A stretch of DNA of 64,000 nt from an uncultured delta proteobacterium (GCA_963848295.1 CAWKDB010000010.1:4032001-4096000); one strand, 5' to 3'; positions 24,256 through 40,693 are shown, counted from the stretch's first letter. The notes: generated by a model from the sequence alone, not told the origin. A program made the numbers and translations.

Positions 24256-24315
24256 AACGTTGACCTTGACCTGAACCTGAACTTGAACGGCAGCTTAGAC
24301 GTTGTCGTTGACACC
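24256..24315 (+). repeat. degenerate hexamer tandem array (RAC-NNN-type units)
   Basis: AACGTT GACCTT GACCTG AACCTG AACTTG AACGGC AGCTTA GACGTT GTCGTT GACACC. Confidence 0.65.
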
Positions 24316-24348
24316 GCAACCCAGAGTTGTGTGGCCGATAGCCCGGTC

Positions 24349-24505
24349 ATGCTCAGCTTCCAGAAGCTTCGCGTCTATCAACGCTCGATCGAGTTCCTCG
24401 CGCTGGCACTGGAGATCATCGGCGAGCTTCCGAAGGGTCATGCCGAGCTTGCCGATCAGCTGGTCGGCGCCGCGCAGTCGCAACGTCGTAACATCGCCGA
24501 GGGTG
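24349..24505 (+). pseudogene. four-helix-bundle protein (23S rRNA IVP-like), 3'-truncated
   Basis: MLSFQKLRVYQRS...LADQL..AAQS...NIAEG; family pattern stops right after NIAEG. Confidence 0.8.
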
Positions 24506-25156
24506 CTCCTCGCGAACGTCTATTTACACGAGGTGCTCGACACGTGGTTCGAGACGGACGTGAAGCCTAGGCTGCAAGGCCACGCGTTTCTCATCCGGTA
24601 CGCGGACGACGCTGTCCTCGTATTCTCGTCGGAAAAGTGACGCTCGCAAGGTGATGGACGTACTGCCGAAACGATTCGGCAAATACGGACTGAAGCTCCA
24701 TCCAACGAAGACGCGGCTGGTGAGGTTTGTCCGGCCGCATCACAACGACACCCCGAAGGACGTGGACACCGAGAGCTTCGATCTTCTCGGCTTCACGCAC
24801 TTCTGGGGAAAGTCGCTGAAGAAAATGTGGGTGGTGAAGCGGCAGACAGCTCGCAGCCGATTCGGTCGCGCGCTTCAACGGGTCAGCCAGTGGTGCAGGA
24901 TTCATCTGCACGACAAGATCGCCAGACAGCACAAACACCTCTCGCAGATGCTTCGCGGGCACTACGGCTATTACGGCATCACCGGAAACGCCAACGTGCT
25001 CTCGCGCGCTTCTTCTACGAGGTGACGCATGTCTGGCAGAAGTGGCTGCACCGACGGACAGGACGCGGTGCGATGCCGTGGCCACGATTCATGCGCGTGC
25101 TGGAGCGATATCCGCTTCCGCCACCCAAGGTCGTCCATAGCGTCTACCGGACGTAG
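24505..25156 (+). pseudogene. group II intron reverse transcriptase/maturase fragment with two frameshifts and no endonuclease domain
   Basis: LLANVYLHEVLD, RYADD, LKLHPTKTRLV, FDLLGF, LRGHYGYY across three frames; shifts near 24636 and 25005. Confidence 0.88.
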
Positions 25157-31133: not shown

Positions 31134-34097
31134 CTACTGGATGATGTACTGGCAGTTCGTGCAGCCGGGCGTGCCGTCACACTGCTCCCCGAACGAAACC
31201 TCGACGATCCCGTCGCCGCAGTAGGGCGCGGCTTCACATGCCGCGGTGCACTGGCCCTGGCCATACGCGGTCACCGAGTTCGCCGCACCGTTGTCGCACT
31301 GCTCCGGTCCGTTGATGACGCCGTCGCCGCAGTACGGCGCCAGCGTGCAGTCCATGTCGCACGTGCCGTACGAGCCGTTGTTCGTGCCGTTATCGCACTG
31401 CTCGGTGCCGTTCTTCACCCCATCGCCGCAGCGGCCGCCGAGCGTGCAGTTCGGGTTGCACTTGCCGTAGCCGCCGGTGTTGTTCGCGGTGCCGTCGTCG
31501 CACTGCTCGCCAGCGTCGACCACGCCGTTCCCGCACTTCAACGTGCAGTTCGCGGCGCACGGATCATCGGCCGCACCATTGTTGACGCCATCGTCGCATT
31601 GCTCGGCGCCGTTCTTGAGGTTGTCGCCGCAATGCGGCCCGAGCTTGCACGTAGAAGTACAGCCGTTGTACGCACCGATATTGGCGGCGGTGCCGAGGTC
31701 GCACTGTTCGCCATAGACCGACTGCACGGTCGCGTCGCCGCAGTACGGCGCGATCACGCAGCCCGGGCCGCACTCCGCCATCGTGCCGCCATAGGTCGCG
31801 ATGTTGTTGCCGTCATCGCACTGCTCGGGTCCGTTCGTCAGATCGTCGCCGCAGTACGGCTCGCGCAGCGAGCAATCCGCCGAGCAGCTGCCGTACATCC
31901 CGTTGTTGACGCCGTCGTCACACACTTCGTTGCCCTCGATGATCCCGTCGCCGCAGATCGGCGCGCAGGTGCTCACCGTGTGCGTGAAGCCGCTCAGCGT
32001 CAGGCCATACGTCGACGCCGTCGTGTGGCGCTCGGCTTGGAAGACGTCGATCGAGTACATGCCGCCGTCGGTCAAGCCCAGCGTCGCCGCCTCGCCGCCT
32101 GCCGGCGTGTTCGTCAGTTGCACGCTGCCAGGGGTCTTGCCGTGGACGCCGCCGATGTCGACGACGAGCTGGCCGTTGATGAACACCCACACGTCATCGT
32201 CGCCGTCGAAGCTGAACGTCGGCTGCGTGGTCTTGTCGTACGTGAACGGATAGTGGAGCTCGCTCGTGAACGAGAAGTTGTGCGCGTTGCCGTCGCCGGC
32301 AGTGTCGGTCTGGATCGACGACGATCCGGGTGCGTTCCACCCGAGGTTGTCGACCGGGAAGAAGTAGTCGTTGCTGTACGAGTAGACGTTCGGCGAGGTC
32401 TCGGTGAGCGTCAGCGTCGTCGGGTTCCCGCTCGTATCGAGGAAGACCTCGCTGTCGAACGGGTTCGTCGAGCCGGTGCCGTTACAACCAGTCTGGTGAT
32501 ACCACCAGCAGAAGTCGGTCGAATTCGTCAGCGCCTGCGGGTTGCCGATCTTGTTGAACACCGGCTCGCCGTCCGCGCCGAGCGCCGACTTCACCAGCTT
32601 GGTCTCGACGCCGGTGTTGTAGTTCTGGAAGTCGGGGCTGCCGGCGCCGGGGCTCAGCGTCAGGAACGTGTTGTAGTAGTGCATATCGCGATACAGGATC
32701 GGGATCGTCAGCGTCGATGCCGGCGTCTGGTTCGCGTTGGTGCACGACCAGCCCGACTCGATCTTGCAGTTGTGGTCGCAGCCGTCGCCGTCATTGAGGT
32801 TGCCGTCGTCGCACTGCTCGGTGCCAAACACGAGGCCGTCGCCGCACACCGCGGTGCACTGACCGCCTGCGCACTTCGGCTCGATCGTGCAGGTCGGCGA
32901 GCAACCGTCGTACGGGATGCGGTTGCCGTCATCGCATTCTTCGGCGGGCGGCTCGAAGGTGCCGTTGCCGCAGTGCGCTTGCGTGCATACGTTGCCGCTG
33001 CAGTTCCATCCGGTCTGCACCGTGCACGTCGCGGTGCAGCCGACGCCGGTGCCGTTGTTCACACCGAGGTCGCAGGCCTCGGCACCGGCCTGGATGCCGT
33101 CGCCGCAGGTCTTCGCGACGCACCTGAGGCCGGAGTGCGGGCACACCCAGCCGGCTTCGAGCATGCACGTCCCCGAGCAGCCATCGTTGGACGTGGTGTT
33201 GCCGTCGTCGCACTGCTCGCTGCCCTCGACCTTGCCGTCGCCGCACACCACGGTCGACACGCACATCTGTCCGGCCATCGGACAGTTGAAGTTCGCTTCG
33301 AGCTGACACGTGCTGCTGCAGCCGTCGCCGGACATCGCGTTGCCGTCATCGCACGTCTCGCCGATGTCGTAGTCGATGACGCTGTTGCCGCAGTACTCGA
33401 CCAGGTTGCACTTCATGCCCGCCGTCGGGCAGCTGTAGCCGGTCTCGATCACGCACGAGCTCGAGCAGCCATCGCCAGAGGACATGTTGCCGTCATCGCA
33501 CTGCTCGCCCGAATCGATGATGCCGTCGCCGCAGATCGGAACCGGCGCCATCACGCACGCGCCGCCGGTATTCGGGCACGTCCAGCCCGGGGTGACCTGC
33601 GAGCAGTCGGCCGCGCAGCCGTTGTTGCCGGTCGTATCGCCGTCGTCACACGCCTCGTTGGCCTCGACGACGCCGTCGCCGCACACGATCGTCGAGATAC
33701 ACGGCTGACCCGCGGTAGGGCAGACGTAGTTCGGTTCGATCTGGCACGTGCCGGAGCAGCCGTCGCCAGGCACGCCGTTGCCGTCGTCGCATTGCTCCGG
33801 CGCCGTGACGATGCCGTCGCCGCAGTACAGCTCCTGGATGCACGGCTCGCCCGCGGTCGGACAGAACCAACCTTTCTCGTCCTGGCAGGTCGCGCTGCAA
33901 CCGTCGCCTGACGTCGTGTTGCCGTCGTCGCACTGTTCGCCGGTTTCGACCACGGAGTTGCCGCACGCCGGACCGTTCGGTCCGCCGGCGTCACTGCCGC
34001 CGCTGCCATTGCTCCCAGCATCGGCCGGATTGTCAGGAGTGTGAGAGCCACAAGCTGCGATTGCGAGAACGGCCAGCATTGACATCCGTCGGAGCAT
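31134..34097 (-). CDS. Myxococcal Cys-rich repeat (DUF4215) lipoprotein with central fibro-slime/PA14 domain
   Basis: Many CGDG...EQCDDGN..GDGC repeats; HNFSFTSE, GDDDVWVFINGQL, FQAERHT. Confidence 0.9.
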   Translation of the reverse strand: MLRRMSMLAVLAIAACGSHTPDNPADAGSNGSGGSDAGGPNGPACGNSVVETGEQCDDGNTTSGDGCSATCQDEKGWFCPTAGEPCIQELYCGDGIVTAPEQCDDGNGVPGDGCSGTCQIEPNYVCPTAGQPCISTIVCGDGVVEANEACDDGDTTGNNGCAADCSQVTPGWTCPNTGGACVMAPVPICGDGIIDSGEQCDDGNMSSGDGCSSSCVIETGYSCPTAGMKCNLVEYCGNSVIDYDIGETCDDGNAMSGDGCSSTCQLEANFNCPMAGQMCVSTVVCGDGKVEGSEQCDDGNTTSNDGCSGTCMLEAGWVCPHSGLRCVAKTCGDGIQAGAEACDLGVNNGTGVGCTATCTVQTGWNCSGNVCTQAHCGNGTFEPPAEECDDGNRIPYDGCSPTCTIEPKCAGGQCTAVCGDGLVFGTEQCDDGNLNDGDGCDHNCKIESGWSCTNANQTPASTLTIPILYRDMHYYNTFLTLSPGAGSPDFQNYNTGVETKLVKSALGADGEPVFNKIGNPQALTNSTDFCWWYHQTGCNGTGSTNPFDSEVFLDTSGNPTTLTLTETSPNVYSYSNDYFFPVDNLGWNAPGSSSIQTDTAGDGNAHNFSFTSELHYPFTYDKTTQPTFSFDGDDDVWVFINGQLVVDIGGVHGKTPGSVQLTNTPAGGEAATLGLTDGGMYSIDVFQAERHTTASTYGLTLSGFTHTVSTCAPICGDGIIEGNEVCDDGVNNGMYGSCSADCSLREPYCGDDLTNGPEQCDDGNNIATYGGTMAECGPGCVIAPYCGDATVQSVYGEQCDLGTAANIGAYNGCTSTCKLGPHCGDNLKNGAEQCDDGVNNGAADDPCAANCTLKCGNGVVDAGEQCDDGTANNTGGYGKCNPNCTLGGRCGDGVKNGTEQCDNGTNNGSYGTCDMDCTLAPYCGDGVINGPEQCDNGAANSVTAYGQGQCTAACEAAPYCGDGIVEVSFGEQCDGTPGCTNCQYIIQ

Positions 34098-34242
34098 TAC
34101 CGCCCACGCTACGCTATGTGGAGCCGCTTTTGGGTAGCGCACGGTGTGGACGGATCGGCAGCACACTCCGACGGAGATGTGGTCTCAGGGATACTCGTAA
34201 CGCCGCGAGGCGAGTCGACCCAGCTCGCGCGACTGAGCTAGG

Positions 34243-36822
34243 ATGCCTCGCGCCCCGATGCCGGATCGCACGCTCGTCGCCTCCGCCACGAACTTGTTGA
34301 CGCGAGGGTTCCTCGTCGTGCCCACCGACCGTGAGTCGCGCGCCGGCGACCCGGTCAACGCCCTGTTCTTCGTCGCGCGCGCGCTGCAGCGGGCGATCGC
34401 GTTCAAGCAACCGGCGCGCGCGGTCGCGGTGGTCGAGGCGAACCCCGATACCTCGAAGTGGCCGGCGATCCTCGTCGAGCAAGTCGCGCGGTTGCCCGAG
34501 CTGTGCGCGGCGTACGGCCTCGAGGTCGTCGCCACGACGGGCGAGGTTCACGCGGTCGCGAGCTACACACGCGCCGCGCTCGATGCCGGCGACGACGTCG
34601 TCGTGGTCGGGGTCGACAAGCGCTATGCGCAGCTCGTCGGCGACCGCGCGTGGTGGTACGACGCGGCGAAGGACGCGCGCTACACGCCGGAGATCGTGAT
34701 GAAGCGGTTCGGCGTGGCGCCCGACAAGGTCGCGGGCTGGCTCGGGCTCGTCGGGGACGAGGATGCACTGCCCGGTGTCAAAGGCATCGGCGCGAAAGGC
34801 GCGACGACGCTGGTCGAGACCTACGGTTCGATCGAAGGCGCGATCGCCGAGCTCTCGCGGATGGAGGGCCGGCTCGGCAAGGCGTTGCGCGCGGCCGGCG
34901 ACGATGTCGAGCGCGAGCTGGCGCGGGCGACGCTCGATCAGGCCGTGGCACTACCTCGGCCGCTCGCCGAGCTCGCCTACCGCGTGCCGGATGCCGCCGC
35001 GCTCAACCCGTTGCTCGATCATCTCGGCTTTGCCGAGCTGCTCGTCGCCGAGGGTGGCGCGATCCATGTCGAGGTCTGCGAGACCGGCGACGAGGTCGGA
35101 GCGGCGCTCGCCCGGATCGGCGGCGCCACCGTCTGCATCCACGCGGTGCTCGAAGATCCGGCGCCGGTGCGCAGTGCGCTCGTCGGCGTCGCGTTGACGA
35201 CAGGCGAGGGCAGCGCGTGCTACGTGCCGTGTGCGGCCGCCGGCTGGCCCGGGCTCGCGGCCTGGCTCGCGGATCCGAGCATGCCGAAGGTCGGCCACGA
35301 TCTGGTCGGGACGATGGTGGCGCTGCGGCGGCTCGGCGGTTCGCTCGCAGGTATCGCCGGCGATGCGATGTGCGCGTCACACCTCACGCAACCGAGCAAC
35401 TGGGCGCCGCACGATCTCACGCTCGTCGCGAAGCACGTGCTCGGGCGCGCGCTGCCCGATGTCGACGTCGTGCGCGGTGTCGGCCAGAAGCGCAAGGCCT
35501 GGGCGGCGCTGCCGGTCGAACGAACCGCGGACTTCGCCGCGCACTACGCCGACGCGGCGCTCCGCGTGTGGAACGAGCTCGCGCCCGGCGTCGATCGCGC
35601 CTTGCTCGCCGAGTACCTCGAGCTGTCCGAGGCGCTCGTGCGGATGGAGCTGACCGGGCTGATCGTCGATCCGGCCGAGCTCGACCACGCCGAGCGTGCG
35701 TTCGCCGCGATCGAAGCCGAGCTCACGCAACAGATCGAGGCGCTCGCCGGCCATGCGTTCAACATCAACTCGGGCAAGCAGCTCGGCACGGTGCTGTTCG
35801 AGGAGCTGAAGCTGCCGGTCGTCAGTCACACGAAGACCGGCTGGAGCACCGCGATCGAAGCGCTCGAGCGGATCGAGCACGCGCACCCGATCGTGGCGCT
35901 CGTGATTCGGTGGCGCCTGCTGCGCCGGTTGCGCGATAGCTGGGTGATCGCGCTGCGCCGCTGCATCGACGACGACGGCCGCGTGCATTCGCGATGTCAC
36001 CCGGCGCGCTCGTTCTCCGGCCACCTGATCAACACGAACCCGGACCTCGCGCGCGTGCCCGGCCGCACGCCCGAGATGAACATGATCCGCCGCGCGTTCA
36101 AGGCGGCGCCGGGCCGGCTGCTGATGTCGGTCGACTTCAACCAGCTCGGCCTGCACGTGCTCGCGCACCTGACGAAGGATCCGGCGCTCGTCGAGCCGCT
36201 GCGCCGGCGCGACGACATGCACGCGCTGACCGCCTCGGCGGTGCTCGACAAGCCGCTCGAGGCGATCACGGCCGACGATCGCCAGCTCGGCAAGGTCGTC
36301 AACTTCGCGACGTTCGCCGGGCAGGGCGCGAGCGCGCTCGCGCTGCAGCTCGGGGTCACCGCGCAGGAAGCGAAGGAGCTGATCGCGCGGTTCGATCGCC
36401 GCTACGCGTCGGTCCGCGCGTTCCAGGACGAGCAGCTGCGGCTCGCCCGCGAGCGCGGCTACATCGTGACGATCGCCGGCCGGCACTGGCCGATCGGCGG
36501 CCTCGAGTCGCTCGATCCGCACGATCGATCCTACGCCGAGCGGCTCGCTCGCCGCGCCACGCACGAAGGCTCGGTGTCCGACGTCTCGCGCCGCGCGCTG
36601 CTCGACGCCGATCGCGCGCTGCGCCGCGAAGGACTCGGCGCGGTGCCACTGCTGCAGATCCTCGACGAGGTGCTGTTCGACGTGCCCGAGGCCGAGCTCG
36701 CGGTCGCCGCGCGCGTCGCGTCGGAGGCGATGCGCCATGCGTTCGAGCTCGAAGTGCCGCTTGTCGTCGGCGTCGAAGTCGGTCGCAACTGGGCCGACCT
36801 CGAGCGGTTCACGGTCGCCTAA
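34243..36822 (+). CDS. divergent DNA polymerase I (family A) paralogue with degenerate nuclease domains
   Basis: Pol I domain order; HhH LPGVKGIGAKGA; FNINSGKQL..VLF; motif A SVDFNQLG, motif B K..NF, motif C ILDE; alternative start 34258. Confidence 0.85.
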   Translation: MPRAPMPDRTLVASATNLLTRGFLVVPTDRESRAGDPVNALFFVARALQRAIAFKQPARAVAVVEANPDTSKWPAILVEQVARLPELCAAYGLEVVATTGEVHAVASYTRAALDAGDDVVVVGVDKRYAQLVGDRAWWYDAAKDARYTPEIVMKRFGVAPDKVAGWLGLVGDEDALPGVKGIGAKGATTLVETYGSIEGAIAELSRMEGRLGKALRAAGDDVERELARATLDQAVALPRPLAELAYRVPDAAALNPLLDHLGFAELLVAEGGAIHVEVCETGDEVGAALARIGGATVCIHAVLEDPAPVRSALVGVALTTGEGSACYVPCAAAGWPGLAAWLADPSMPKVGHDLVGTMVALRRLGGSLAGIAGDAMCASHLTQPSNWAPHDLTLVAKHVLGRALPDVDVVRGVGQKRKAWAALPVERTADFAAHYADAALRVWNELAPGVDRALLAEYLELSEALVRMELTGLIVDPAELDHAERAFAAIEAELTQQIEALAGHAFNINSGKQLGTVLFEELKLPVVSHTKTGWSTAIEALERIEHAHPIVALVIRWRLLRRLRDSWVIALRRCIDDDGRVHSRCHPARSFSGHLINTNPDLARVPGRTPEMNMIRRAFKAAPGRLLMSVDFNQLGLHVLAHLTKDPALVEPLRRRDDMHALTASAVLDKPLEAITADDRQLGKVVNFATFAGQGASALALQLGVTAQEAKELIARFDRRYASVRAFQDEQLRLARERGYIVTIAGRHWPIGGLESLDPHDRSYAERLARRATHEGSVSDVSRRALLDADRALRREGLGAVPLLQILDEVLFDVPEAELAVAARVASEAMRHAFELEVPLVVGVEVGRNWADLERFTVA

Positions 36823-37283: not shown

Positions 37284-38948
37284 CTAGCGGCGCTGCGCCG
37301 CGATCAGCTTCGTGTCCTCGTCGATCGGCTCGGCCCACGGATGCTCGCGCAGGATCGCGCGCGCGCGTTGGCGCAGCTCGTCGGGTAGGGCGGCGCGCTG
37401 GGCCTGTGCGAACGCGGTCGCGAGCTCGGCGGCAGTCTGGAACCGCAAATCGCGAGACTTCGCGAGCGCGATCGCGAGCACCGCTTCGAACGCGGGCGGC
37501 ACGCTCGTGATCGCGCCGGGCCGCAGCGGCATCTGGTGCACGACCATGTAGAGCACCGACGCCATGTCGCGCCCGGTGAAAGGCGCCTGACCGGTGAGGC
37601 TGCGATAGATCACGGCACCGAGCGCGTAGACGTCGGCGCGATGATCGACCTGATCACCCTTGGCTTGCTCCGGCGCCATGTACGCGGGCGTGCCGACCAC
37701 GCCGCCATGGGTGAGCGTGCCGCTGCCTTCGCCGAGCTGAGCGACGCCGAAATCGAGCAGCTTCCAGCCGGCGTCCTCGGTGAGAAATAGATTCTGCGGC
37801 TTGATATCGCGATGCACGATGCCGGCCTCGCGCGCGAGCTCGAGCACGCCGGCGATGTGCTCGACGAGGGTCTCGAGTCGCTGCGGTGACAGCCGCGCTT
37901 TCTTGCGCAGCAGATCGTTGAGCGGTTCGCCGCGCAAGCGCTCCATCGCGAGGAACGGTACCGGATCCTCCGGCGTCGACGCCTGCAGCACGCGCACGAC
38001 ATGCGGTGACTCGAGCGAGCTCGCCGCGCGGACCTCGCGCAAGAACCGTTCGACGTAATCGCGTGCGCCGAGCAGCTCGCGCCGCAACAGCTTGACCGCG
38101 CCAGGATCGCCGGTCGTCGTGTGCGTCGCTTCGTAGACCTCGCCCATCGCGCCGCGGCCGAGCACGTTGTCGAGCGCCCACGAGCCGACGACGTGGCCTG
38201 TGAACCGGCCGGGCCCGCCGATCTTCAACGCGCGATCGAGCTCGTGGCGCAGCTCGTTGACCTGCTCGGCGCGTTGCGCCGCGAGGCGCGTCGCCTCTTG
38301 CAGCTCGCTGATCGCTTCGAGCGAGGCGCGCCGTCCGTAGCGCGCCATCAGGAACCCGAGCACGTAGCCCCACTGCAACGTGAGCTGTCCCGCGATCTGC
38401 GCGGGGATCGACGTCGAGTGCCGCACCGGATACAGCCCCGGATCGTGGATCACCCCGGCGATCACGAGCCCGGCGACGAGCCCGTGGCCGCCAGCGGCGA
38501 GCACGTAGATCGCGGTCGCCGCCGCGATGCTCTCGGTCCGGCAGAAGAAGTACAGCCCGAGCACCGTGAACAACGGCGCGGCCGAGAACTGGCCGACGTA
38601 CAGGATGCCGAGCTGACCGCACAGCACGCACCACAACGCGAGCGCGGACAACTTGCGCGAGTCGAATCGATTCGGGTCGCGCAACTCGGCGTAGAGCCAG
38701 ACGCTCGCGAGCATGCCGATGCCGACGAGCGATAGCAGGACCGCCGCGATCCGGCGATCGCCGGGGATCGCGAGCGCGAGCACGAACACGCCGATGCCGA
38801 GGCCCCAGCCCATGCGCAGGAAAGCGCGCGTACGCTCGACCTCTTCAGTGCGCAGTGCATCGGTCGCGGTCGTCAGCGTCGTGCGCAGGTAGTGCGAGCC
38901 ACCCGCGGTCTGGCCCGGCTCGGTCGAGCCTGATTGGGTCGGGCTCAC
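37284..38948 (-). CDS. Ser/Thr kinase with N-terminal multi-TM domain
   Basis: GTG 38948 overlaps the upstream stop; about 6 TM; LGRGAMGEVY, AVK, HRDIKPQN, DFG, GTPAYMAPEQ. Confidence 0.88.
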   Translation of the reverse strand: MSPTQSGSTEPGQTAGGSHYLRTTLTTATDALRTEEVERTRAFLRMGWGLGIGVFVLALAIPGDRRIAAVLLSLVGIGMLASVWLYAELRDPNRFDSRKLSALALWCVLCGQLGILYVGQFSAAPLFTVLGLYFFCRTESIAAATAIYVLAAGGHGLVAGLVIAGVIHDPGLYPVRHSTSIPAQIAGQLTLQWGYVLGFLMARYGRRASLEAISELQEATRLAAQRAEQVNELRHELDRALKIGGPGRFTGHVVGSWALDNVLGRGAMGEVYEATHTTTGDPGAVKLLRRELLGARDYVERFLREVRAASSLESPHVVRVLQASTPEDPVPFLAMERLRGEPLNDLLRKKARLSPQRLETLVEHIAGVLELAREAGIVHRDIKPQNLFLTEDAGWKLLDFGVAQLGEGSGTLTHGGVVGTPAYMAPEQAKGDQVDHRADVYALGAVIYRSLTGQAPFTGRDMASVLYMVVHQMPLRPGAITSVPPAFEAVLAIALAKSRDLRFQTAAELATAFAQAQRAALPDELRQRARAILREHPWAEPIDEDTKLIAAQRR

Positions 38949-40693
38949 GCGACCGCCTCCCACGGGTGCTTCGCGATCAACGCGTCGGCGCGCTTGCGCA
39001 GCTTTCCGTCGAGCTCGCCGGCGAGGGCGTGCGCGAACGCATCGGCGAGCGCGTGCCCGGTAGCCGAATCGATCGTCGGCGGACTTCGCGAGCGCGAGTG
39101 CGACCCAGCGATCGACATCCGCGCCGATCGGACCGAGCGCACCCGGGCGCGCTGGCATGCGGTGGACCACCGCATAGAGCAGCGCGGGCGTATCCGGCGC
39201 GGTGAACGGATGGCGCCCGGTCAGGCAGCGATACACGACCGCCGCGATCGCGTAGAGGTCGGCGCGCGCGTCGACCCGCTGGCCGCGCGCTTGCTCCGGC
39301 GCCATGTAGCTCGGCGTGCCGACGATCCCGCCCTGAGTCAACGTCCCGGAGTCGTCGGCGAGCGTCGCCACGCCGAAGTCGAGGATCTTCCAGCACGCGC
39401 CGCCGCGCTCGTCGCGAAACAGGTTCTGCGGCTTGAGATCGCGATGGACGATGCCCGCCGCGCTCGCGGCATCGACCCCCGCGCCGACGTGCTTGCACAG
39501 CTCGAGCACCTCCTCGGTCACGAGCCGGCTGTCTTGGCGAAGTAGATCCGCGAGCGTGTGACCGGTCAGCCGCTCCATCGCGAGGTACGGGACGCCGGCA
39601 TCGGGCGCCGCGGCTTCGAGCACGCGCACGACGTACGGCGACGCGAGCGCACCACTCGCTCTCGATTCGCGCAGGAACCGCGCGACGTGCGTCGGATCCG
39701 CGAGCAGCTCGCGGCGCAGCAGCTTGACCGCGGCGGGCTCGTTCGTGGTGGTCGTGGATCGCTTCGTAGACCTCGCCCATCGCACCTCGCCCGAGCACGT
39801 TGCCGAGCTTGAACGATCCGACGGTCTGATCGGTGTGACGGCCGGGACCGCCGACCCGCAGGGCTCGCTCGAGGTCGGCGCGTAGCTCGTCCATCAACGC
39901 CTTGCGCTGCGACGCGAGGCGAGTCGCGCGTTGCAGGCTCTCGATCGAGTGGCGCGACGCCCGGCGCAGCGCCCGCGCCGTGATGTACGCGAGCACGTAC
40001 GAGCCGAGCACGGCGATCGACGCGGCGGCGAGGGTCAGGCGTGACGTCGCGACATCGGTCGCGAACACGCCCGGATCGGCGATCACGCCGGCGACGATCA
40101 GGCCCGACGCGATCGCGTAAGACGTGAGGCCGGTGGCGAGCAGATAGCGCGCGGCGCGCTCGGCTTCGCTGCGCGCGGTGAAGTGAATGCCGACCACCAT
40201 GATCGCGGGCGCGGCGGAGTACACGCCGAAGAACAGGATCGCGACGTGCGCGTTGATGATCGCGAGCACGCCGAGCACGAGCAGCGCGCCCCTCGCCGTA
40301 GCGCGCCGGATCGGCGAACCGGCGCCAGAAGTAGAAGCTCATCACGATGCCCCACACCATCGCGGCGATGAACGCGATCGTCATCGCGCGCGGCGCCTCG
40401 ACGAACGGCACCGCACCCATCGCGCCGAGGCTCGCGAGCCAGCCGAGCGAGATGAACTGGCGAGTGCGCCGGACCTCGTCCTCGAGCAACGCGTCCGCCA
40501 TCGTCGTCAGCGACATCGACGAGCCGCGGGTCGCGCCGCTGACCTGCGCGGCCGATCGCTTGACCCGCTCGATCGGGCTGCGGGGCGGCGCCGGCGCGGG
40601 GTTCACCAGCCCGGGTCGATCGCCGACCGTCTCCCGGCTCTCGGTGGCGGCACGCGCAGGCCGGCCGTCATCGGTCGGAACGCGATCTGCCAT
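38945..40693 (-). pseudogene. paralogous multi-TM Ser/Thr kinase broken by three +1 frameshifts (pseudogene or sequencing error)
   Basis: Pieces in ORFs 39566..40693, 38977..40278, 37284..39785 and 38945..39175 join into one gene collinear with its neighbour. Confidence 0.8.

Follow-up and report, generated by a model that had tools for sequence, protein, structure and literature searches.

Can a DNA polymerase I-like protein that keeps its catalytic residues, and exchanges those that discriminate among substrates, be a specialised enzyme rather than a decaying one? The question is raised by a PolA paralogue in a 64,000-nt stretch of DNA from an uncultured delta proteobacterium (GCA_963848295.1, CAWKDB010000010.1:4032001-4096000; hereafter the window, with positions counted from its first letter), where positions 34243..36822 of the plus strand are one uninterrupted frame that encodes 859 aa when read from its first ATG (P0001). 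An initial annotation, made from the sequence, had proposed specialisation rather than decay, and this was borne out by a canonical polA elsewhere in the genome, by substitutions fixed across a clade of homologues and by purifying selection. Judged from sequence comparison, the gene defines a Myxococcota PolA subfamily, one that is real and conserved and apparently undescribed. In this subfamily the metal- and triphosphate-binding side of the polymerase site is untouched, while the residues beneath the nascent pair and those contacting the primer terminus have been rebuilt or relaxed.

Conservation of the polymerase active site

Alignment to E. coli polA from RefSeq, which served as the reference for residue numbering, confirmed every motif residue as first read. 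D705 corresponds to D631 in the paralogue (codon at 36133), E710 to G636, K758 to K684, F762 to F688, Y766 to A692, R668 to H594, N845 to R771, Q849 to E775, H881 to L807, and D882/E883 to D808/E809. Conservation was assessed over 235 non-redundant, near-full-length homologues of 48-92% identity, chosen by search rank with motifs ignored; the set is dominated by one family, has 19 rows below 60% identity, and excludes P0055, partial or frameshifted representatives, partial loci, 11 duplicates and 80 metagenome loci. Because identical states recur in all these homologues, chance or assembly error can be ruled out.

D705, Q708, H734, R754, K758, F762, R841 and D882 were kept in 235/235 (in the paralogue's own numbering D631, Q634, H660, R680, K684, F688, R767 and D808), and E883 in 234; just 25% of palm and fingers columns were equally constant. 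New and fixed in all 235 were E710G, N845R, Q849E, A665F, V663R, I765F, Y640W and K857R, and the Y766 site held Ala in 234 and Asn in one. The catalytic aspartates of motifs A and C and the motif B Arg and Lys that characterise family A are thus universal here, and its steric-gate Glu and motif B Tyr are replaced. Other positions varied: the R668 site was His in 121 homologues, Arg in 71, Gln in 26, Glu in 10 and another residue in 7; the H881 site was Leu in 144, Val in 60, His in 23 and another residue in 8; and the Q677 site was Gly in 175, Ser in 35, Ala in 22 and another residue in 3. Among 31 sister-lineage and 57 canonical PolAs used for comparison, E710, Y766, N845 and Q849 were conserved at 96-100%. 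Of the changes in discrimination residues first listed, E710G, Y766A, N845R and Q849E are therefore marks of the clade, whereas R668H and H881L are variable and do not define it; a distant orthologue of the P0122 type retains both R668 and H881.

On the plus strand of the window, the alignment places F591 (A665 to Phe) and H594 (the R668 site) at 36013..36024; motif A, with D631 and the gate glycine G636, at 36133..36150; motif B, with R680, K684 and F688 kept, F691 new and A692 in place of Y766, at 36280..36321; R771 and E775 at 36553..36567; and motif C, with L807, D808 and E809, at 36661..36669.

Ratios of nonsynonymous to synonymous substitution (dN/dS) were calculated by the Nei-Gojobori method, per domain, for seven pairs. 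For the polymerase domain, the two closest pairs gave 0.037 and 0.105; the five more distant ones, in which dS is probably understated because GC content at third codon positions is high, gave 0.16-0.31. This domain had the lowest value among domains in 7/7 pairs. G636, A692, R771 and E775 were written with several synonymous codons across 31 loci, which were chosen by motif. None of the 71 matches in family genomes contained an internal stop, which together with dN/dS rules out decay or a pseudogene.

Domain architecture and loss of both nuclease sites

Pfam 5'-nuclease, 3'-5' exonuclease-like and DNA_pol_A domains were arranged in Pol I order. PF00476 (DNA_pol_A) scored 315 bits against a cut-off of 34.3, which assigns the protein to family A. 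PF01367 scored 54.9 bits, above its cut-off, and PF02739 32.2, slightly below 34.3; an N-terminal FEN-like domain is present, with fold matches to FEN and ExoIX at Z 25.0 and 22.9. The AlphaFold2 model (predicted local distance difference test score, pLDDT, 94.9; predicted template modelling score, pTM, 0.89) had Taq, M. smegmatis Pol1, Bst and Klenow as its top fold matches (Foldseek, VIA-align), and 573 residues aligned to Klenow with Z 36.1 and a root-mean-square deviation of 3.3. Pfam, the model and the fold matches delimit the palm and fingers at 35968..36819 (+), preceded by a thumb region (35608..35967, +) in which the equivalents of the DNA-backbone contacts S582, Q585, S608 and R631 are kept. 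The FEN-like domain is what a Pol I orthologue (PolA1) would have, but the protein scored below cut-off with both NCBIfam Pol I equivalog models (528 vs 720 and 436 vs 600), lacks the 5'-nuclease carboxylates and does not group with canonical polA. A loose QxxLF beta-clamp pattern occurred in only 19/235 homologues, without conservation.

The catalytic residues are gone from both nuclease sites, a point absent from the initial annotation. In the 5'-nuclease (FEN)-fold domain (34258..35052, +), D13 is Ser, D115 and D116 are lost, D140 is Arg and the Y77/R81 region is deleted. Among the homologues D13 survived in one and D140R was universal; the D116 site was Asp in 25/235, and at the D115 site Asp was not among the seven commonest residues. 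Helix-turn-helix glycines and lysine are retained, and W138, K143 and R155 are new and invariant. A stretch of this dead domain (34651-34740, +) has gained the near-invariant residues W137, W138, K143, R146, R155 and W166, whose aromatic and basic side chains perhaps form a new nucleic-acid or partner surface. The 3'-5' exonuclease-fold domain (35053..35607, +) is the least conserved of the protein, with the DEDDy acids D355, E357, D424 and D501 replaced; the canonical polA of the same genome is likewise without proofreading acids.

Copy number, distribution and evolutionary origin

The genome is 85% complete and has two DNA_pol_A matches. The second, found on contig C11, is a canonical polA with canonical motifs and intact 5'-nuclease acids, which rules out the paralogue as the sole polA of the genome. 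Other carrier genomes examined had a canonical polA in 10/10 cases and a third PolA in 6/10. Beside three PolAs, one genome (G071) held two further, very divergent DNA_pol_A matches (L124 on C53, and one on C194; E ~1e-22 and 1e-20).

The paralogue was carried by 71 of 118 genomes of the family, within the genus by 63 of the 76 others and, in an even draw across the phylum, by 12 of 401 genomes from 6 families (E <1e-80, with matches bearing the clade motifs); G010 and G460, which are flagged as unpublished, are among the genomes counted, and G010 additionally contributed to the alignments and to the 73-row tree. Homologue record titles, where given, are those of metagenome assemblies and name Kofleriaceae, Polyangiaceae, Myxococcales, Labilithrix, Sandaracinaceae, Deltaproteobacteria, or simply Proteobacteria or bacterium. 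No viral member was found, as the 32 viral matches were all at 22-31% identity. Across 83 loci no neighbour family recurred besides abundant Ser/Thr kinases (15/83) and local synteny (at most 6/83), and a phage, defence-island or operon context is ruled out by these non-recurrent neighbours and the absence of viral members.

In a careful 28-row tree the paralogue clade was monophyletic (100/100), with P0137 as its sister (100/98). It was joined with a second group of myxobacterial PolAs, here called clade B, and both were split from canonical polA at 100/100; an approximately unbiased (AU) test rejected (p = 0.0005) a clade in which 8 members were placed with 4 canonical polA drawn from the same order or class. 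Support for monophyly of clade B was just 41/27, which leaves the paralogue clade nested in it or sister to it. The stem of the paralogue clade is long (0.55-0.76; 0.55 in the 28-row tree) and branch lengths are ordinary thereafter; a quick 73-row tree agreed, with some long-branch pull possible. Phylogeny and motifs thus indicate that the ancestor of the paralogue clade was another myxobacterial PolA, of a lineage whose active site is normal.

Clade B (L025, L051, L073-L090, L101-L110; P0130, P0133-P0135, P0138, P0143, P0144) is itself a full-length lineage, present in at least 22/401 phylum genomes at the threshold used and co-occurring with the paralogue clade in 6/10 genomes examined; no name for it was found in the sections of the PolA literature consulted. 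As nearest relatives, the two share N675D, N678R and the motif B sequence NFAT. Clade B differs in keeping E710, Y766, N845, Q849, R668 and the 5'-nuclease acids; it has a normal polymerase site and fixed N675D/N678R and Y706W/F. One member, P0133 (1152 aa), carries an N-terminal Exo_endo_phos (exonuclease III-like) domain at residues 4-248 and is possibly a base-excision-repair fusion, and in P0139, an intermediate PolA, the gate residue is Asp and the motif surrounding N845 is altered. In P0137 and P0366 the 5' nuclease is degenerate and R668 is His, yet E710, Y766, N845 and Q849 are kept; these two sequences suggest that nuclease loss preceded the rebuilding of the active site.

Proposed function

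What such a protein does is a prediction. We give a probability of roughly 0.45 to the paralogue being an accessory repair nucleotidyltransferase that is nuclease-dead, ribonucleotide-tolerant and weakly template-checking. By what is known of Pol I biochemistry, the thumb and palm would hold the end of a duplex, D631 and D808 would bind two metals, and the incoming triphosphate would be bound by H660, R680, K684 and F688, while Gly636 would abolish the clash with a 2'-OH. E710, Y766, Q849, N845 and R668 would form one contact network beneath the nascent pair that was rebuilt as a unit: E775 would replace the carboxylate lost at 710 and could touch the 2'-OH, and R771 would fill the E710/Y766 cavity and substitute for R668, which would afterwards have drifted. 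The outcome would be short ribonucleotide or mixed-sugar tracts, added at DNA gaps, nicks or ends with weak base-pair checking. The repair role is a default assumption and the weakest step of the proposal.

Within the protein, the polymerase acids are fixed while the 5'-nuclease D13 survives in 1/235. Passages of PMC6158600 report that Pol theta E2335G and Taq mutants containing E615G incorporate NTPs, and that the gate glutamate hydrogen-bonds the motif B Tyr, the motif 6 Gln and the TGR Arg; this network favours the proposal, since its residues are those changed in the paralogue clade. Laboratory evolution has produced the pairs I614E/E615G and I709E/E710G (excerpts of PMC9533422), which by analogy represent a carboxylate regained next to the gate glycine. 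In T7 RNA polymerase, parts of PMC11617373 describe G542 as avoiding the 2'-OH clash, H784 as bonding the 2'-OH and Y639 as reading the ribose. Counted from the motif A Asp, G542 and G636 occupy the same position, five residues on. E775 may sit where H784 does, if H784 is, as a register made by hand suggests, the counterpart of Q849; profile alignment (hhalign) gave no similarity.

Several points weigh against this proposal. Laboratory Glu-to-Gly changes worked with Y766, N845, Q849 and R668 intact, and here all of these are changed, plus Q677 and usually H881. Passages of PMC10520511 report that enzymes mutated at the counterpart residues are disabled in substrate binding or in catalysis, or have lower fidelity, and Klenow or Bst mutants impaired in binding, catalysis or fidelity also appear in excerpts of PMC7708058. 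T7 RNA polymerase retains Y639 for ribose selection where the paralogue clade has Ala, and the hhalign probability of similarity to that enzyme was 0.1%. An Asp can remain fixed in a dead site, as D125 (D138) of the degenerate 5' nuclease is kept in 235/235; D374, D646, D658 and D780 are invariant as well. A repair-related neighbourhood was absent from the 83 loci, and the presence of Ku in all carriers (71/71) says little about repair because Ku occurs in 110/118 family genomes, including 39/47 non-carriers. Both activity and active-site geometry are predicted from sequence.

The genome also encodes Ku, LigD, RNase HII and Y-family genes. In the genus, at least two Ku matches were found, among the matches listed, in 41/64 carriers vs 2/13 non-carriers, a comparison confounded by kinship. 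A link to non-homologous end joining was not taken as evidence, given the near universality of Ku in the family and this confounding. In a single genome (G474, L260:8915-9976), the paralogue is followed at ~1 kb, on its own strand, by ku, and a gene that is probably ligD lies close by. The ku of the genome studied here (L251/L252, G000:C11:598946-599474) is split over two frames, as is the adjoining ligD, and both splits are probably assembly frameshifts.

A bolder reading, which we regard as doubtful, makes the protein a Pol I-derived ribonucleotidyl transferase in which Gly would open a 2'-OH pocket, as it does in T7 RNA polymerase, the fixed R771/E775 pair would take the place of the template-reading network and itself select sugar or base, and the template would be partly supplied by the protein. 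It would then record an independent DNA-to-RNA polymerase transition within PolA with living intermediates, clade B and then P0137/P0366 with their dead nuclease and normal gate.

A pseudo-polymerase that binds DNA ends, nicks or gaps, perhaps with nucleotide and metal, and hardly catalyses, acting as protector, sensor or scaffold, seems rather unlikely. In its favour, none of the three Pol I sites is unaltered; R668, Q677, N845, Q849 and H881, which contact the primer terminus and the minor groove, are all changed or variable; the DNA-backbone contacts of the thumb and 5' domain are retained; and invariant acids occur in the dead nuclease domain too. On the other hand, the full complement of metal and triphosphate residues, K758 and E883 among them, is fixed in homologues of 48-92% identity, the polymerase domain shows the lowest dN/dS in every pair, the new residues are fixed where they might have varied freely, and the inactive accessory polymerase homologues described in the main text of PMC12926913 have disrupted catalytic aspartates.

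We consider it unlikely that the paralogue is a protein-templated or template-free nucleotidyltransferase, in which R771 and E775 at the templating position would pick the base and F591 would displace the template, so that ends would be tailed or positions opposite abasic sites filled. Base selection by protein side chains has precedents in Rev1, which uses Arg, and in CCA-adding enzymes, which use Glu/Arg to select the incoming base. The new invariant residues R589, F591, F691, R770, R771, H774 and E775 lie on template-side motifs, and Arg plus Glu would make a base-reading pair. In addition Y766, which stacks at the terminal pair, is gone (passages of PMC10520511), and Pol theta, itself a PolA, already works without a template, more so for NTPs with E2335G (parts of PMC6158600). 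However, the template-backbone R841 and the thumb contacts are kept, as expected for a normal primer-template, and R771 and E775, one helical turn apart, may merely form a salt bridge.

An ordinary dNTP-selective polymerase, perhaps error-prone or lesion-bypassing, with R771, E775 and F691 making up for the loss of E710 and Y766, is improbable. The volume changes appear partly reciprocal, the Pol I fold is confident (pLDDT 94.9; Z 36.1 to Klenow) and the descent is from an active-looking PolA lineage; but a fixed gate Gly is the state of RNA polymerases and of engineered rNTP-using enzymes, the genomes already have a canonical polA and often another normal PolA, and so many fixed changes are unexpected under unchanged function. 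Selection for another reaction, for instance the removal of blocked 3' ends by pyrophosphorolysis or the extension of primers that are RNA or modified, would suit the intact triphosphate/pyrophosphate site, the loss of primer-terminus residues and the loss of both nucleases, but has no positive evidence and no partner genes in the 83 loci, and is very improbable.

Probable gene start, predicted promoter and neighbouring genes

The paralogue is a stand-alone chromosomal gene, flanked by genes for a DUF4215/PA14 protein and Ser/Thr kinases. Its true start is probably the second Met at 34258, giving 854 aa, since the first ATG overlaps a TAGGAT hexamer, the spacing of TANNNT recurs in orthologues and the closest homologue is 854 aa long. 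The -10-like TAGGAT (34239..34244, +) lies 13 nt ahead of this start codon and is predicted to belong to a short-leader promoter; a TANNNT 7-14 nt ahead of the start occurred at 21/35 orthologous loci vs 2/245 control windows. A scan for the paralogue found no full sigma-70 consensus promoter, and in ~130 nt upstream of the 35 loci no shared operator such as a LexA box was evident by eye, with no motif finder used, apart from the -10-like hexamer. No RNA data set was listed as containing the gene, and one DNA sequencing run covers it only as short pieces.

Upstream and divergent, 31134-34166 (-) encodes a 1010-aa Cys-rich DUF4215-repeat protein with a PA14 domain, beyond which lie a dual-specificity phosphatase-like gene and lon. 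Downstream, two tandem membrane Ser/Thr kinase genes at 37284-40693 (-) are apparently fused or frameshifted in the assembly, and the frame 37284-39785 holds two kinase stretches. Farther off, three short overlapping frames at 24302-25156 (+) resemble, on inspection by eye, a fragment of a disrupted group II intron reverse transcriptase/maturase, with a YADD motif near 24600; the pieces had no Pfam match.

Relation to known polymerases and significance

Classification of PolAs has recognised 19 clusters (main text of PMC10201439) or the groups PolA1, PolA2, PolA3 and PolA1-like (main text of PMC12926913). The paralogue resembles bacterial Pol I (PolA1; cluster 1 of PMC10201439, as given in its main text; NF004397, TIGR00593) in three-domain order, fold, catalytic Asp, O-helix R/K/F and thumb contacts, and differs in its sub-cut-off scores, the lost 5'-nuclease acids, the clade-wide E710G, Y766A (234/235), N845R and Q849E, and its place as a second or third PolA. 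Like APEX/PolA2, CHEAP/PolA3 and DpoZ, it belongs with PolAs that have accessory or specialised roles and do not stand in for Pol I. According to the main text of PMC12926913, PolA2 is actinobacterial and non-PolA1 groups lack a 5'-nuclease domain, unlike this Myxococcota protein with its FEN domain. Scores excluded membership of APEX/PolA2 (PRK14975-type models, best 154 bits vs 640) and of the phage-borne DpoZ (NF038380, 92 vs 500 bits).

Functional analogues with folds unrelated to PolA exist among natural repair polymerases that use ribonucleotides, one being the POL domain of LigD, which has an AEP fold. Mycobacterial DinB2 is another, with a Y-family fold (main text of PMC12926913). T7-like single-subunit RNA polymerases share the Gly five residues past the motif A Asp, but keep H811 as well as Y639, at whose site the paralogue has A692, and the paralogue has a Pol I architecture with FEN and exonuclease folds; no RNA polymerase was among the 50 fold matches listed for the whole model, a list filled by Pol I and nuclease domains. 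Engineered Taq E615G enzymes (SFR3, AA40, SFM4-3), Klenow I709E/E710G and Pol theta E2335G share the Glu-to-Gly gate and incorporate rNTPs or 2'-modified nucleotides (passages of PMC6158600 and PMC9533422). As listed there, they leave Y766, N845 and Q849 unchanged, in contrast to the paralogue clade, which is natural and has the whole network changed.

That the clade might already have been characterised is not supported by the main text of the two PolA classifications, neither of which (PMC10201439, PMC12926913) mentions a full-length paralogue whose gate residue is Gly. Parts of their supplements were searched for the motifs and returned nothing, and members may appear there under ordinary Pol I. 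Full-text literature searches, whose coverage leaves out most subscription journals, found no description of the clade.

A widespread lineage has thus fixed other residues at the steric gate, the O-helix Tyr and the minor-groove Asn/Gln while keeping the chemistry residues. If inactive, the protein would be a PolA pseudo-enzyme, a kind not described in the main text of PMC10201439 or PMC12926913. If active, it would be a natural ribonucleotide-using PolA, the counterpart of enzymes so far engineered in laboratories; it would show how evolution compensated for the engineers' Glu-to-Gly change, could serve as a scaffold for the synthesis of RNA or 2'-modified nucleic acids, and would offer a testable model for a change of sugar specificity in the Pol I fold.

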